From Escherichia phage teqhal, in sequence record MN895435.1: a stretch of 64,000 bases of DNA; one strand, given 5' to 3'. The notes below the pieces were generated by a model. It searched no databases and was not told the DNA's origin. It was given only the letters and a program-made list of their open reading frames with translations. Positions 2,439 through 23,072 of the stretch are shown here, piece after piece (positions within the stretch are counted from its first letter, which is position 1; each line of letters starts with the position of its first letter). Position numbers and translations under genes: made by a program.

Positions 2439-3641
2439 ATGAAAGTATGTATTTTTATGGCTCGAGGTCTTGAAGGTTGTGGTGTAACTAAATTTTCTCT
2501 TGAGCAACGTGATTGGTTTATTAAGAATGGTCATGAAGTAACTTTGGTTTATGCTAAAGATAAATCATTTACTCGTAATTGCGCGCATGATTATAAATCA
2601 TTTTCAATTCCGGTTTTATTGGCAAAAGAATATGATAAAACACTTAAGCTGGTAAATGATTGTGATATTCTAATTATCAATTCAGTTCCTGCTACTTCGG
2701 TTGAAGAAGACACTATTAATAACTATAAAAAAATTATTGATAACATTAAACCTTCTGTTCGTGTTGTAGTTTATCAACATGACCATTCTTCTCTTTCTTT
2801 GCGTCGAAATTTGGGATTAGAAGAAACTGTTCGTCGAGCTGATGTTATTTTTAGTCATTCTGATAATGGTGATTTTAATAAAGTTCTGATGAAAGAATGG
2901 TATCCAGAAACTGTTTCTCTGTTTGATGATATTGAAGAAGCACCGACCGTATACAACTTTCAGCCTCCTATGGATATTGCGAAGGTTCGATCAACATACT
3001 GGAAAGATGTTTCTGAAATTAACATGAATGTTAACCGTTGGATTGGTCGTACGACTACATGGAAAGGTTTTTATCAGATGTTTGATTTTCACGAAAAACA
3101 TCTTAAACCTGCAGGACTAAGTACTATTATGGAAGGTCTGGAACGTTCTCCAGCGTTCATTCCTATTAAAGAAAAAGGAATTCCATACGAGTATTATCGT
3201 CTTCATCAAGTAGACCAAATTAAAATTGCTCCTAATTTGCCAACGCAAATTCTTGATCGTTATGTAAATAGCGAAATGCTTGAACGCATGAGTAAATCCG
3301 GTTTTGGTTATCAGTTGAGTAAGTTGGATAAAAAATATCTACAACGTTCTTTAGAATATACTCATCTCGAGCTTGGTGCATGTGGAACAATTCCGGTATT
3401 TTGGAAATCTACTGGCGAAAATTTAAAATTCCGTGTTGATAATAATCCTTTGACCTCGCATGATAGCGGTATCATTTGGTTTGATGAAAATGATATGGAA
3501 TCAACATTCGAGCGTATTAAAGAACTGTCATCTGACCGAGCTCTTTATGACCGTGAGCGAGAAAAAGCATATGAATTTTTGTATCAGCATCAAGATTCAA
3601 GCTTCTGCTTTAAAGAACAGTTTGACATTATTACAAAATAA
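2439..3641 (+). CDS. a-gt: HMC alpha-glucosyltransferase
   Basis: 400 aa, MKVCIFMARGLEGCGVTKFSLEQRDWFIKNGHEVTLVYAKDK matches remembered T4 alpha-gt. Confidence 0.85.
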   Translation: MKVCIFMARGLEGCGVTKFSLEQRDWFIKNGHEVTLVYAKDKSFTRNCAHDYKSFSIPVLLAKEYDKTLKLVNDCDILIINSVPATSVEEDTINNYKKIIDNIKPSVRVVVYQHDHSSLSLRRNLGLEETVRRADVIFSHSDNGDFNKVLMKEWYPETVSLFDDIEEAPTVYNFQPPMDIAKVRSTYWKDVSEINMNVNRWIGRTTTWKGFYQMFDFHEKHLKPAGLSTIMEGLERSPAFIPIKEKGIPYEYYRLHQVDQIKIAPNLPTQILDRYVNSEMLERMSKSGFGYQLSKLDKKYLQRSLEYTHLELGACGTIPVFWKSTGENLKFRVDNNPLTSHDSGIIWFDENDMESTFERIKELSSDRALYDREREKAYEFLYQHQDSSFCFKEQFDIITK

Positions 3642-18412: not shown

Positions 18413-19840
18413 GTGGTAGAAATTATTCTTTCCCATCTCATATTTGATCAAGCTTATTTTTCAAAAGTTTGGCCATATATGGATTCAGAATATTTTGAAA
18501 GTGGTCCAGCTAAAAATACATTCAAATTAATTAAATCTCATGTTAATGAGTACCATAGCGTTCCATCTATTAATGCGTTAAATGTTGCATTAGAAAATAG
18601 TTCATTTACTGAAACAGAATATTCTGGTGTAAAAACACTTATTTCGAAACTAGCCGATTCTCCAGAAGACCATAGCTGGTTAGTAAAAGAAACAGAAAAA
18701 TATGTTCAGCAAAGGGCGATGTTTAATGCTACGTCTAAAATAATTGAAATTCAAACTAATGCTGAGCTTCCTCCGGAAAAACGAAATAAGAAAATGCCAG
18801 ATGTAGGTGCTATTCCTGACATCATGCGCCAAGCATTATCAATTTCATTTGATAGTTACGTTGGTCATGATTGGATGGATGACTACGAAGCACGTTGGCT
18901 ATCTTATATGAGTAAAGCTCGTAAGGTTCCATTTAGACTCAAAATTCTAAATAAAATTACTAAAGGTGGAGCTGAAACTGGAACACTGAACGTTTTAATG
19001 GCTGGTGTTAACGTCGGTAAGTCATTAGGTCTGTGTTCATTGGCAGCAGATTATTTGCAGCTCGGACATAATGTTCTTTACATTTCCATGGAAATGGCAG
19101 AAGAAGTCTGTGCTAAGCGTATTGATGCTAATATGCTTGATGTTTCTCTTGATGACATTGATGACGGGCATATTTCTTACGCTGAGTATAAAGGAAAAAT
19201 GGAAAAATGGCGTGAGAAATCTACCCTTGGTCGTTTAATCGTTAAACAGTATCCTACTGGTGGAGCAGACGCTAACACATTCAGGTCTCTCTTGAATGAA
19301 TTGAAGCTCAAGAAGAATTTTGTTCCAACAATCATTATTGTCGACTATCTAGGTATTTGTAAATCTTGCCGCATCAGAGTTTATTCAGAAAATAGTTACA
19401 CAACTGTTAAAGCTATTGCAGAGGAATTGCGTGCTCTGGCTGTTGAAACCGAAACTGTTCTTTGGACTGCAGCACAGGTCGGTAAACAAGCTTGGGACTC
19501 TTCCGATGTTAACATGAGCGATATTGCAGAATCTGCTGGTCTTCCAGCAACAGCTGATTTTATGCTTGCGGTCATTGAAACCGAGGAGCTAGCAGCTGCT
19601 GAACAACAACTCATTAAGCAAATCAAATCACGATATGGCGATAAGAATAAGTGGAATAAGTTTTTAATGGGTGTTCAAAAGGGAAATCAGAAATGGGTAG
19701 AAATTGAACAAGATTCTACTCCAACTGAAGTGAGTGAAGTAGCAGGTTCACAACAGATACAAGCTGAGCAGAATCGCTATCAAAGAAACGAATCGACTCG
19801 AGCTCAGTTAGATGCTTTGGCAAATGAATTAAAATTTTAG
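18413..19840 (+). CDS. 41: replicative helicase gp41 (DnaB-like)
   Basis: 475 aa, GTG start, Walker A GVNVGKS, T4 gp41 length. Confidence 0.9.
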   Translation: MVEIILSHLIFDQAYFSKVWPYMDSEYFESGPAKNTFKLIKSHVNEYHSVPSINALNVALENSSFTETEYSGVKTLISKLADSPEDHSWLVKETEKYVQQRAMFNATSKIIEIQTNAELPPEKRNKKMPDVGAIPDIMRQALSISFDSYVGHDWMDDYEARWLSYMSKARKVPFRLKILNKITKGGAETGTLNVLMAGVNVGKSLGLCSLAADYLQLGHNVLYISMEMAEEVCAKRIDANMLDVSLDDIDDGHISYAEYKGKMEKWREKSTLGRLIVKQYPTGGADANTFRSLLNELKLKKNFVPTIIIVDYLGICKSCRIRVYSENSYTTVKAIAEELRALAVETETVLWTAAQVGKQAWDSSDVNMSDIAESAGLPATADFMLAVIETEELAAAEQQLIKQIKSRYGDKNKWNKFLMGVQKGNQKWVEIEQDSTPTEVSEVAGSQQIQAEQNRYQRNESTRAQLDALANELKF

Positions 19841-19843
19841 TTT

Positions 19844-19874
19844 ACAAGCTGACAAGACTATGGTATAGTAGTCT
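19844..19874 (+). promoter_or_regulatory. T4-type early promoter
   Basis: AGTTTACAAGCTGACAAGACTATGGTATAGT upstream of dmd. Confidence 0.5.
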
Positions 19875-19898
19875 TGTTGGTTAAATGAGGAGATTGTT

Positions 19899-20081
19899 AT
19901 GGAATTGGTAAAGGTAGTTTTTATGGGGTGGTTTAAGAATGAAAGCATGTTTACTAAAGAGATCACAATGATGAAAGATGACGTTCAATGGGCTACTACT
20001 CAATATGCTGAAGTTAATAAAGCACTAGTTAAAGCTTTCATTGATGACAAGAAGGTATGTGAAGTGGATTGCCGAGGATAA
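19899..20081 (+). CDS. dmd: Dmd (61.5), antitoxin against host RnlA/LsoA
   Basis: 60 aa ORF in the T4 dmd position between 41 and 61, T4 Dmd length. Confidence 0.6.
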   Translation: MELVKVVFMGWFKNESMFTKEITMMKDDVQWATTQYAEVNKALVKAFIDDKKVCEVDCRG

Positions 20082-20082
20082 T

Positions 20083-20340
20083 ATGCATATCGTTTTATTT
20101 AAACCTACTCCGTATAATGTCAGGAAAAATACTCAATTCAAAGCACTTATTGCAGATACGTGGGAATTAGTATTAGATATTCCGGCAGAAGAAAGCCCTC
20201 CATTTGGTCGAGTGGAATTTATTAAGTTTGCTGTGCGCCCTACAAAGCGACAGATTCGTCAATGCAAAAGATACTTTCGTAAAATCGCCAAGTTAGAGAA
20301 ACAGTTTGTAACATGTGATTATGCAGAAGTTTTAAAATAA
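20083..20340 (+). CDS. hypothetical protein (61.4-like)
   Basis: 85 aa from ATG just after dmd stop (track ORF 20041..20340). Confidence 0.45.
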   Translation: MHIVLFKPTPYNVRKNTQFKALIADTWELVLDIPAEESPPFGRVEFIKFAVRPTKRQIRQCKRYFRKIAKLEKQFVTCDYAEVLK

Positions 20341-20342
20341 CT

Positions 20343-20372
20343 GTTTACTTTTATTGGAAATTGAGATACTAT
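20343..20372 (+). promoter_or_regulatory. T4-type early promoter
   Basis: TGTTTACTTTTATTGGAAATTGAGATACTATATAA upstream of sp. Confidence 0.45.
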
Positions 20373-20400
20373 ATAAACATAAACTACTGAGGAGATTATC

Positions 20401-20694
20401 ATGAAAAAATTTATCTTTGCTGCAATTTTTGCTTTATCTTCTTGCGCTGCTCAGCCTGCTATGGCGGGTTATGACAAAGATTTGTGCGAATGGTCTATGA
20501 CTGCAGATCAGACTGAAGTTGAAATTCAAATTGAAGCGGATATTATGAATATCGTTGAACGTGATCGTCCTGAAATGAAAGCTGAAGTGCAAAAACAACT
20601 TAAATCTGGTGGTGTAATGCAGTATAATTATGTTCTGTATTGCGATAAAAACTTTAATAATAAAAATATCATCGCTGAAGTGGTAGGTGAATAA
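20401..20694 (+). CDS. sp: periplasmic Spackle (Sp, 61.3)-like protein
   Basis: 97 aa, signal peptide MKKFIFAAIFALSSCAAQPAMA, T4 sp position and length. Confidence 0.6.
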   Translation: MKKFIFAAIFALSSCAAQPAMAGYDKDLCEWSMTADQTEVEIQIEADIMNIVERDRPEMKAEVQKQLKSGGVMQYNYVLYCDKNFNNKNIIAEVVGE

Positions 20695-21320
20695 TGCTCT
20701 ATCAAATGCACAAGTGCAAAGATACATACAAATATAAAGGTGCCCAGTGTTATATCATTAATCGTGAAAACGCGGGTCCAGGTCATTCGCATCAATCACG
20801 GTTTGTATTCGTTAAAAACAATGAAATTATAGCAGTTGCTAATTACATGCTTGTGATTAATGACGTTAATCCGGTGCCTTTTACATATTATAATCTAATG
20901 GATTTGGCGTACGATTATAATTGGTTTAATCATGACACTTTGGCTCATATCGAAGGCGTAGGATTTGACATCTCTTATTCTAGTTACTCGTTGTGTCCTA
21001 TGAGCCGAGCTCATAGAGAGCCTGAATATTTTTCATTTCGTCGGCGTGTAGACTTTAAACGCAGCACAGAGTATGTCGGTGGAATATTTGTTAAAGATAA
21101 TCGAATTACTCGCATTATTTATCCTTTGGGCTGTGGTCAAAAAGATATTGATGTTGATTTAGACTTTACTGAAAACATCATTAATCATATTGCTTCTGTG
21201 TATTTTGATATTGATCACAAAATTGTAATATGTGGATATGAATTACCGTTTGAAGAACAGCCTAAAGTAAAAGTTTCTATTGACGATCAAATTTTTAATG
21301 CTTTTATGAATAAAGGTTAA
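20694..21320 (+). CDS. hypothetical protein (61.2-like)
   Basis: 208 aa; C-terminus SIDDQIFNAFMNKG shared with next ORF. Confidence 0.5.
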   Translation: MLYQMHKCKDTYKYKGAQCYIINRENAGPGHSHQSRFVFVKNNEIIAVANYMLVINDVNPVPFTYYNLMDLAYDYNWFNHDTLAHIEGVGFDISYSSYSLCPMSRAHREPEYFSFRRRVDFKRSTEYVGGIFVKDNRITRIIYPLGCGQKDIDVDLDFTENIINHIASVYFDIDHKIVICGYELPFEEQPKVKVSIDDQIFNAFMNKG

Positions 21321-21321
21321 T

Positions 21322-21678
21322 ATGTATAGTTCTGAATTTTCATATTTAAAAATGGAAAAAATTTCATACGATTTTATAGATGAAAAGGTTTATTACAGTT
21401 TCCATGAACCGCGTTTTAATAGTGAGGTTGGGTTTATTGTAGTAAAAGACAATTTCATTTTAAAGATATATTCGGCATTAAAGGATTTTCACTACGAAAA
21501 TATTAACCTAAAATTTGATAAAGAAAACGTTCGTAATTGTGCAGTAACAATTACAGGAAATAAAGGTACATGTGTTATGCTATCTGATGAAATTAATGAT
21601 TTGCTAAATGATGCAGAAAATATTACTGCGCCATCTATTGATGACCAAATTTTTAATGCTTTTATGAATAGAGGTTAA
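21322..21678 (+). CDS. hypothetical protein (61.1-like)
   Basis: 118 aa; C-terminus SIDDQIFNAFMNRG shared with previous ORF. Confidence 0.5.
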   Translation: MYSSEFSYLKMEKISYDFIDEKVYYSFHEPRFNSEVGFIVVKDNFILKIYSALKDFHYENINLKFDKENVRNCAVTITGNKGTCVMLSDEINDLLNDAENITAPSIDDQIFNAFMNRG

Positions 21679-21679
21679 T

Positions 21680-21844
21680 ATGAAAACATATAAAGAATTT
21701 ATTAAAGAAGATATGGTCGCTGGAGATTCAGGTGGTAATCCTGAAAATATCTCTACTGGAACAACGTCAGGTGCTGTAGTAAATAAAGGTCCTGAACAGA
21801 TTCCTAAAAAGAAGAAAGAGGAATCTAAAGAAAAAGAAGAGTAA
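21680..21844 (+). CDS. small Lys/Glu-rich protein (54 aa)
   Basis: ATG with GAGG RBS, ends 2 nt before gene 61; not in ORF track. Confidence 0.3.
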   Translation: MKTYKEFIKEDMVAGDSGGNPENISTGTTSGAVVNKGPEQIPKKKKEESKEKEE

Positions 21845-21846
21845 AA

Positions 21847-22875
21847 ATGTCATCAATACCTTGGATTGATAATGAGTTTGCATACCGTGCATTAGCTCAT
21901 TTACCTAAATTCACACAAGTAAATAATAGTTCAACTTTTAAATTGCGGTTTAGATGTCCTGTTTGTGGAGATTCAAAAACCGACCAGAATAAAGCTCGTG
22001 GATGGTATTATGGTGATAATAATGAAGGAAATATTCATTGTTATAACTGTAATTATCATGCACCAATCGGAATATATTTAAAGGAGTTTGAACCTGATTT
22101 ATATCGTGAGTATATCTTTGAAATAAGAAAAGAAAAAGGTAAAAGTCGTCCAATAGAAAAACCTAAAGAACTTCCTAAGCAACCTGAGAAGAAAATAATT
22201 AAATCTCTTCCGTCATGTGTTAGATTAGATAAACTAGTGGAAGACCATCCAATTATAAAATATGTAAAAGCTCGTTGTATTCCAAAGGATAAATGGAAAT
22301 ATCTTTGGTTTACAACCGAATGGCCTAAATTAGTTAATAGCATAGCACCGGGAACATACAAAAAGGAAATTTCTGAGCCTCGTCTTGTTATTCCAATTTA
22401 TAATGCTAATGGAAAAGCTGAGTCTTTTCAAGGACGTGCATTAAAGAAAGATGCTCCTCAAAAATATATCACCATTAAAGCTTATCCTGAGGCAACAAAA
22501 ATTTACGGTGTTGAACGAGTTAAAGATGGTGATGTATATGTTCTAGAAGGACCTATAGATTCACTTTTTATTGAAAATGGTATAGCTATTACAGGTGGTC
22601 AATTAGACCTAGAAGTTGTTCCATTTAAAGATAGACGAGTGTGGGTTTTAGATAATGAACCTCGTCACCTTGACACTATCAAACGAATGACTAAATTAGT
22701 TGATGCAGGAGAAAGGGTTATGTTTTGGGATAAATCTCCCTGGAAATCAAAAGATGTCAATGATATGATTAGAAAGGAAGGTGCAACCCCTGAACAAATT
22801 ATGGAATATATGAAAAATAATATTGCCCAGGGGTTGATGGCTAAAATGCGGCTATCTAAATATGCTAAGATTTAA
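21847..22875 (+). CDS. 61: DNA primase gp61
   Basis: 342 aa, zinc ribbon CPVCGDS...CYNC and Toprim region, T4 gp61 length. Confidence 0.9.
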   Translation: MSSIPWIDNEFAYRALAHLPKFTQVNNSSTFKLRFRCPVCGDSKTDQNKARGWYYGDNNEGNIHCYNCNYHAPIGIYLKEFEPDLYREYIFEIRKEKGKSRPIEKPKELPKQPEKKIIKSLPSCVRLDKLVEDHPIIKYVKARCIPKDKWKYLWFTTEWPKLVNSIAPGTYKKEISEPRLVIPIYNANGKAESFQGRALKKDAPQKYITIKAYPEATKIYGVERVKDGDVYVLEGPIDSLFIENGIAITGGQLDLEVVPFKDRRVWVLDNEPRHLDTIKRMTKLVDAGERVMFWDKSPWKSKDVNDMIRKEGATPEQIMEYMKNNIAQGLMAKMRLSKYAKI

Positions 22876-23072
22876 ATCAACCCAACTAAAGCAAATGCTA
22901 AATCTACAAATGTATCAAGAGTAACTACTGGAATATTAATACCATGCGCAATTGCAACAGGTGATAGAATAAAGTTCCAGAGTAAAATTCCTACCATAGC
23001 AGAAATAGTAAAAGCTATACGTTTTTTATTACCTTTTATGGCATTAACAAGTGCCATTAATTTTTGTACCAT
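22872..23072 (-). CDS. small antisense membrane protein
   Basis: 66 aa, strong SD AAGGAGGA 5 nt upstream, hydrophobic segments; convergent with gene 61. Confidence 0.4.
   Translation of the reverse strand: MVQKLMALVNAIKGNKKRIAFTISAMVGILLWNFILSPVAIAHGINIPVVTLDTFVDLAFALVGLI

Follow-up and report, generated by a model that had tools for sequence, protein, structure and literature searches.

Two adjacent genes of Escherichia phage teqhal end in nearly the same 49 nucleotides (nt), and this direct repeat is best seen as the conserved 3' end module of AdfA-family genes, within which the middle promoter P61 is also found. The genes were found in a 64,000-nt stretch of sequence record MN895435.1 (the window, in full length); they are adfA (T4 gene 61.2; 20694..21320, + strand), which encodes 208 amino acids (aa), and an open reading frame (ORF) of 118 aa of the RB32ORF033c type (21322..21678, + strand), and they lie in tandem between the spackle gene (sp) and 61.1. 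The reading put forward here, with a probability of about 0.72, is that both genes are members of the AdfA family, that one conserved module, with coding, promoter and start functions, ends both of them, and that crossing over at this module swaps genes at the locus. AdfA, the T2/T4 polymorphism, P61 and microhomology recombination are each already known, and nothing in T4 biology is changed; what is modestly new is that the 118-aa gene is recognised as a short member of the AdfA family, carried by about 300 phages and even by T2, which passes for adfA-negative, and that the 49-nt module is used in three ways.

The repeat, its tail peptide and promoter P61

A repeat search placed the two copies at 21276..21324 and 21634..21682 (both + strand), with 46/49 identical positions (94%) and a start-to-start spacing of 358; the repeat sequence is TTAATGCTTTTATGAATAGAGGTTAATATG. 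Copy 1 consists of the last 14 codons of adfA (SIDDQIFNAFMNKG), the TAA stop, a single T and the ATG of the 118-aa ORF, while copy 2 consists of the last 14 codons of the 118-aa ORF (SIDDQIFNAFMNRG), again followed by TAA and T, and then by the ATG of 61.1. Two of the three mismatches are synonymous (GAC GAT versus GAT GAC), and the third (AAA versus AGA) changes Lys to Arg. When the junctions are aligned, the similarity of the two copies ends sharply at both edges of the 49 nt. Since the next-longest direct repeat in the surrounding 2.9 kilobases (kb) has 22 nt at 73%, the 49-nt repeat is not a product of chance, and the tail motif is found nowhere else in the window in any frame. An earlier interpretation made from the letters of the window (the sequence-only reading) had claimed near-identical 3' ends for ORFs with these same coordinates, and both the ends and the coordinates proved real; it overlooked that the repeat contains the mapped promoter P61 together with the signals for ribosome binding and translation start that serve the next gene.

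The encoded tail, with the consensus (S/A)(I/V)DDQIFNAFM(N/K)(R/K)(G/D), is essentially invariant in AdfA of Tequatrovirus and of RB69 (Mosigvirus), in the 118-aa family, in 119- and 117-aa proteins of Gaprivervirus, and in a protein of a metagenomic T4-like contig (P0023). It is also invariant in relatives with saturated synonymous divergence (dS), in which the codons themselves have changed: ATA, GCA and CGA are found in the RB69 tail, GCC and CGA in that of VR25, and 7/13 degenerate codons of the tail at locus L038 differ from copy 2 of the window, as does the junction that follows (TAAagaggctaATG). The presence of the tail in distant relatives whose synonymous sites have diverged marks it as a selected peptide and not an insertion scar, and such deep conservation fits the suggestion of the sequence-only reading that the shared tail could be a functional tag; a function of the tail is likely. 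T2 and L038 have the short gene and no adfA; because the tail is present in their members of the 118-aa family and in other genera, it is native to each family.

The same tail also ends a 145-aa family (phrog_8539 type). The tail-less body of this family has no significant similarity to AdfA or the 118-aa family (E at least 0.07), so it was dropped as a homologue and is treated as a tail-sharing family only. In the Gaprivervirus phages VR25 and VR20 (L007/L010/L011, about 2060-2860), sp is followed by a 145-aa ORF and then by a 117/119-aa ORF, both of which end in the tail (SVDDQIFNAFMKRD, AIDDQIFNAFMKRG), so the pattern of tandem genes with a common tail is found again with another gene in first place.

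In T4 middle promoters, a MotA box with the consensus (a/t)(a/t)(a/t)TGCTTtA lies 12 +/- 1 base pairs (bp) from a -10 element, TAtaaT (PMC2988021), and P61 is an identified promoter of this class with its start site at 19122 (Hinton 2010 review, PMC2988021, Table 1). A pattern search showed that both copies of the repeat contain TAATGCTTTT, a 9/10 match to the MotA box consensus, followed by 12 nt and by TAATAT, which fits the -10 pattern TAnnnT at the required 12 +/- 1 bp spacing. In T4, the ATG of 61.1 is at 19130-19128 on the complement strand and TAATAT spans 19134-19129; the mapped start at 19122 falls 7 nt past TAATAT, as a -12 to -7 element demands, and the T4 sequence around P61 is identical base-for-base to copy 2 of the window. 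Judged by this identity, copy 2 (21657..21681, + strand; TGCTTTT at 21657-21663, a 12-nt spacer, TAATAT at 21676-21681) is the orthologue of the MotA-dependent P61 of T4, and the mapped start holds by orthology for this copy only, with transcription predicted to begin near 21688, in codon 3 of 61.1. The window differs from T4 in having a second near-identical copy of P61 before the 118-aa ORF, a putative P61-like motif in copy 1 (21299..21323, + strand; TGCTTTT at 21299-21305, a 12-nt spacer, TAATAT at 21318-21323).

The signals of promoter, translation and peptide are superimposed in the module. The tail codons for Asn-Ala-Phe (AAT GCT TTT) are the MotA box, the -10 element is made up of the TAA stop, the T and the AT of the next ATG, and the last tail codons, AGA GGT, provide a GAGG Shine-Dalgarno sequence for the next gene. 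In the proposed mechanism, the module would have three jobs: encoding a selected C-terminal helix, SIDDQIFNAFMN(K/R)G; in Tequatrovirus, forming P61 from the Asn-Ala-Phe codons and the TAA-T-AT junction; and starting translation of the next gene, whose start the stop abuts, through AGA GGT. The tails of RB69 (TGCATT) and Gaprivervirus (TGCCTT) keep the peptide and lack the TGCTT box, so use as a promoter is specific to some lineages. In the literature searched, no mention was found of P61 lying inside conserved C-terminal codons of adfA. Across both strands of the window, the pattern TGCTTYN-N11-13-TANNNT occurs 26 times (17 on the + strand) versus 7.9 expected, an excess which suggests that the 64 kb contain middle promoters in numbers well above a dozen.

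Relation of the 118-aa protein to AdfA

The 208-aa product of 20694..21320 matches the AdfA family (Pfam PF23813) over its full length (E 2.3e-135, 449 bits). AdfA, anti-DarT factor A (T4 gp61.2), is attributed to LeRoux et al. 2022, as cited in PMC11257639 and PMC9391042. It blocks the DarT1 ADP-ribosyltransferase by interacting with it, His at position 164 (RB69 numbering) enables this block, and R164H is the DarT1-neutralising change in RB69 AdfA (PMC11257639). A numbering check places His165 of the window AdfA at the position equivalent to RB69 164, which gives it the His allele at this site; neutralisation of DarT1 is known from the literature. No relative of AdfA with a solved structure was found.

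Sequence comparison makes the 118-aa ORF, in all likelihood, a one-domain paralogue that has diverged from the C-terminal half of AdfA. The protein scores 31.9 bits against the Pfam AdfA profile over positions 113-211 (gathering threshold, 27 bits), and PF23813 is also listed for its relatives in a public protein collection. An exhaustive hidden Markov model (HMM) search of 1.84 billion representative proteins with the 118-aa ORF recovered its own family, two distant short proteins (P0022, 119 aa, and P0023, 125 aa) and AdfA, with residues 24-118 aligned to AdfA 114-210 at E 3e-4; a further match, P0024 (E 5e-4), is a low-complexity repeat protein and was taken as spurious. With the tail removed, hhalign related the two families at E 0.002 when close sequences were used and, after P0022 and P0023 had been added, aligned V36-A74 of the short family with V128-A167 of AdfA (E 1.5e-4, 39 collinear columns). 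This alignment sits at the right distance from the tail and includes the motif VGxIxVKDNxI. It also takes in the column of the His164 site, in which AdfA has His or Arg and the Cys of the 118-aa family (Cys73) is invariant.

The 118-aa protein therefore resembles AdfA in matching the C-terminal half of its profile, in occupying the same slot after sp and in having an identical tail, and it differs in lacking the N-terminal half, in the invariant Cys in place of His or Arg, and in the weak similarity of its body. The AdfA-family slot lies directly downstream of spackle in the window, T4, T2, Sf21, RB69, VR25 and L038, and both ORFs are under purifying selection, with ratios of nonsynonymous to synonymous substitution (dN/dS) of 0.09-0.33. 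The claim that the two proteins are unrelated is not borne out by these comparisons, given that both match Pfam AdfA and their tail-less bodies align collinearly. Full-length paralogy had been named as a finding that would refute the sequence-only reading, and the probable distant, partial paralogy seen here comes near it, with the reservation that the homology is weak and confined to the C-terminal half of AdfA.

The N- and C-terminal halves of AdfA are themselves weakly alike (hhalign E 4.6e-4; motifs FVFVKNNEI and IFVKDNRI), and AdfA may be an internal duplication of a domain of ~100 aa of which the 118-aa ORF is the single-domain form. The first ~160 nt of adfA (20694-20860) are mosaic: two N-terminal variants circulate, MLYQMHKCKDTYKYKG... 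and MIYYMHKNPPFKYGKFPD..., and many phage matches start only at query nt 161, which points to a recombination breakpoint inside adfA.

Gene-content alleles and recombination at the repeat

Three arrangements of the locus exist. In T4, adfA is followed directly by 61.1, with one copy of the repeat and no 118-aa ORF, and exactly 358 nt of the window are missing; in T2, sp is followed by the 118-aa ORF, which is the sole gene between sp and 61.1; and in the window, adfA and the 118-aa ORF stand in tandem. Relatives without the 118-aa ORF and with a single repeat copy had been predicted from the window, and T4 is such a phage, the indel being exactly one repeat period. T2 reportedly has another ORF in place of ORF 61.2. 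The T2 and T4 records show the same two alternative ORFs at this same locus, and the window has both in tandem. T2 has been described as naturally without an adfA homolog (PMC11257639).

In the phage collection, the body of the 118-aa ORF is present in 298 records, a contiguous adfA-to-118 junction in 157 and a contiguous sp-to-118 (T2-type) junction in 144, while the T4 junction query is covered to at least 80% in 270 records and the whole 2.2-kb query to at least 80% in 309. From the coverage counts, T4-type genomes number roughly 110-155, and each of the three arrangements is represented by roughly 110-160 sequenced phages.

The junctions were compared in 23 Tequatrovirus loci, including 8 with both genes and 10 of the T4 type. 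The repeat copy before 61.1 ends in ...AATAGAGGTTAATATGaaaac in all 23, whether adfA or the 118-aa gene precedes it, and the copy before the 118-aa ORF ends in ...AATAAAGGTTA(A/G)TATGtat in 7/8 genomes; all 10 T4-type junctions combine the left flank of copy 1 with the right end of copy 2. In genomes such as Shfl2, the two copies share a 34-nt perfect core, and a crossover anywhere within it yields exactly the junction of CM8, the nearest neighbour of Shfl2 in adfA. Four neighbour-joining trees (adfA, the 118-aa gene and both flanks) show the three arrangements intermingled. These junctions fit an origin of the indel by unequal homologous recombination at the repeat. With the end of one gene and the start of the following one both inside the module, crossing over between copies would remove or add exactly one gene (358 nt), which accounts for the adfA-only (T4), 118-only (T2) and adfA-plus-118 (window) alleles; reading frames, translational coupling and one intact P61 before 61.1/61 would be kept. 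The left junction of the T2 type is uniform (sp TAA, TTAGAGGTTAGT, ATG) and retains ~13 nt from the end of the repeat; although it does not have the form that exact joining at a microhomology would give, it suggests a single old, imprecise deletion of adfA.

T4 recombines at microhomologies of 6-10 bp in the same anti-toxin locus (Srikant, Guegler and Laub 2022, PMC9391042). In both cases recombination between short direct repeats alters the gene content of an anti-toxin island; that system involved 6-10 bp microhomologies in laboratory evolution, whereas the polymorphism described here is natural and involves a repeat of 49 nt, of which 34 nt form a perfect core in Shfl2 and similar cases. 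The locus also resembles the PeSL regulatory cassette (2010, PMC2839356), in which optional genes of variable regions are bordered by short regulatory repeats; here too the presence/absence boundaries of the optional gene fall in the repeat (T4, T2 and window alleles). Unlike PeSL, the repeat is not intergenic, being a coding 3' end, a middle promoter and a translational-coupling junction at once. A promoter scan revealed no sigma-70 -35/-10 site at either repeat copy, so the early promoter of PeSL is absent, as is its stem-loop terminator: there is no terminator-like site in 19800-22900, the folds of the two junctions are not more stable than those of shuffled sequences (z = +2.1 and -1.3), and a comparison with Rfam gave no RNA family in the region.

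The Yersinia phage phiD1 (L006, HE956711, 1010-2546) is annotated with adfA, the 118-aa ORF, a 33-aa fragment and a second 118-aa ORF. This apparent expansion was discarded, as the sequence contains many N bases and is probably misassembled at the 49-nt repeat.

The sequence-only reading had explained the locus by insertion of an unrelated cassette beside adfA via short junction repeats, with the shared 14-aa tail as a by-product. The abrupt end of similarity on both sides of the 49 nt, the T4-window indel of exactly one repeat period and the weak tail-less similarity would suit such an event, yet the tail is present in the 118-aa family of T2 and L038, which have no adfA, and in another genus (VR25/VR20) with a different gene pair, where diverged synonymous sites indicate that it is ancestral to the family, and the Pfam and hhalign alignments run collinearly past the tail. 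We consider this explanation improbable: its polymorphism and single-copy relatives have stood, and its unrelated proteins and insertion-made tail have not. Conservation of the nucleotides for purely regulatory reasons, as promoter and ribosome-binding site with an incidental peptide, is more improbable still. The MotA box and -10 element of P61, the Shine-Dalgarno sequence, the stop and the start do occupy about 30/49 nt, and the copy adjoining 61.1 is almost invariant over the 23 loci, with 5 haplotypes of copy 1 in 8 loci; however, the peptide is invariant without the regulatory sequence in RB69 (GCA, TAAAATG), Gaprivervirus (GCC) and L038, the first 7 tail codons, upstream of the MotA box core, are equally conserved, and the cross-genus comparison largely refutes this view.

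The near-identity of the copies would instead come from selection on the peptide, codon bias and the constraints of promoter and ribosome site, with occasional gene conversion possibly adding to it. All codons of the tail are those that the genome prefers, and the 30 nt at the 3' side of the repeat are under constraint from the signals for promoter, ribosome site and stop/start; given the same amino acids and the codon usage of the window, 10/12 degenerate codons are identical versus 6.5 expected (P = 0.03), which is only mildly above expectation under so strong a codon bias. Concerted evolution, in which gene conversion between tandem copies in each genome, and not independent selection, is the main cause of the near-identity of the tails, appears rather unlikely while still deserving serious thought. 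It draws on the same codon excess (only 6/13 agree with the L038 tail), on the codons shared within lineages (GCC and CGA in both Gaprivervirus tails; GCT in both copies, with AGA or AAA, in Tequatrovirus), on the 145-aa tail of VR20, which shares the variants CAG and TTC with the neighbouring tail where that of VR25 does not, and on the mosaic of GAC and GAT among the Asp-Asp codons of the copies. Against it, the sample is small and the P value marginal, the tail codons are all genome-preferred to begin with, and GCT is required for the MotA box, so selection can account for its agreement; in addition, the two VR25 tails differ at 7/49 positions, no fewer than between genera, and the Lys/Arg difference between copies is kept in 7/8 genomes with both genes.

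The reading of two AdfA-family genes joined by an exchangeable module also has evidence to its debit. A Pfam search with the 118-aa protein minus its last 14 residues gave no match, so the 31.9-bit score is tail-dependent; with the tail removed, BLASTP related the 118-aa body to AdfA at a weak E of 0.015, and the hhalign probabilities for the tail-less alignment are merely 13-52%, a sign of weak body homology. The AlphaFold models are of low confidence, with a predicted local distance difference test (pLDDT) score of 60 for the 118-aa protein and 68 for AdfA, and the two models have only a beta-rich body and a C-terminal helix spanning the tail in common; a fold search of viral structures with the 118-aa model returned its own relatives and noise, was uninformative and was not used as evidence. 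The promoter in copy 1 is a candidate identified by its motif, and P61 in the window phage is predicted from the mapping in T4. The indel could be a deletion from the two-gene arrangement or an insertion into the T4 type, either of which fits the data, and the interspersion on the trees could stem from flanking recombination that moves old alleles rather than from repeated new events.

A broader proposal, which as a whole we regard as doubtful, takes the 14-aa C-terminal helix to be a portable module that binds a partner, such as a toxin or some host/phage factor recognised in common, and that is present in at least three divergent families encoded after spackle (AdfA, the 118-125-aa proteins and the 145-aa proteins). 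On this proposal the 118-aa protein would be a second anti-toxin factor, so that T2 would not truly be AdfA-less, the tail codons would have been co-opted as P61 in Tequatrovirus, and the 49-nt coding, promoter and start module would let anti-defence genes swap without disconnecting primase expression. The functions it gives to the tail and to the 118-aa protein are predicted from sequence. If the 118-aa gene does encode an AdfA-like inhibitor, T2 and other 'adfA-negative' phages have a family member that went unnoticed, a candidate counter-defence gene is present in about 300 sequenced phages, and the invariant tail offers a precise target for mutagenesis and pull-downs. By combining a selected peptide, a mapped middle promoter and translational coupling in 49 nt, the module presents a compact case of multi-layer constraint and illustrates the in-frame exchange of gene cassettes.

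Other features of the locus

In a comparison of 19800-22000 with phage sequences, 539 records matched, with identities of 80-99%; almost all are from Tequatrovirus (T4-like phages), and the window is from a Tequatrovirus. The gene order on the + strand is 41 helicase, dmd, 61.4, sp, the 208-aa ORF, the 118-aa ORF, 61.1 and 61 primase. The antitoxin against RnlA, dmd (61.5; 19899..20081, + strand), was identified from the ORF list, the annotation of near-identical phages and PMC9391042, and 61.4 (20083..20340, + strand) belongs to the tifA family (DUF7279) of ToxN inhibitors (Pfam PF23945, E 2e-20; PMC9391042). With dmd at its start, the region of dmd, tifA and adfA has been termed a probable 'anti-TA (toxin-antitoxin) island' (PMC9391042). 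The sp gene (20401..20694, + strand; Pfam PF25676, E 1.6e-44) has a stop that overlaps the start of adfA (TAATG). Downstream of the repeat, 61.1 (21680..21844, + strand; 54 aa, phrog_1823) was assigned from the ORF list and the annotation of relatives, and gene 61 (21847..22875, + strand), which P61 serves, encodes the DNA primase.

Gene content between 61.4/tifA and sp also varies among related phages: an extra 84-aa ORF is present in Shfl2 (L024, 1690-1944) and in one IMG/VR contig (L008, 1885-2139), and RB69 (L005, 1292-1970) has imm.1 and imm at this position. On the minus strand of the window, a 66-aa ORF (22872-23072) overlaps the 3' end of gene 61 by 4 nt with its own 3' end; it is kept in relatives, where it is annotated as dam.1 or, in Sf21, as a 'predicted membrane protein'. 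The locus of HP3 (L037, NC_041919) is a typical Tequatrovirus 41-61 region, yet the taxonomy line of this record reads Rosemountvirus. In T6 (L030, MH550421), 61.1 is annotated at 2923-3111 with 189 nt, overlapping gene 61, versus 165 nt elsewhere, which may reflect a frameshift or a difference in annotation.

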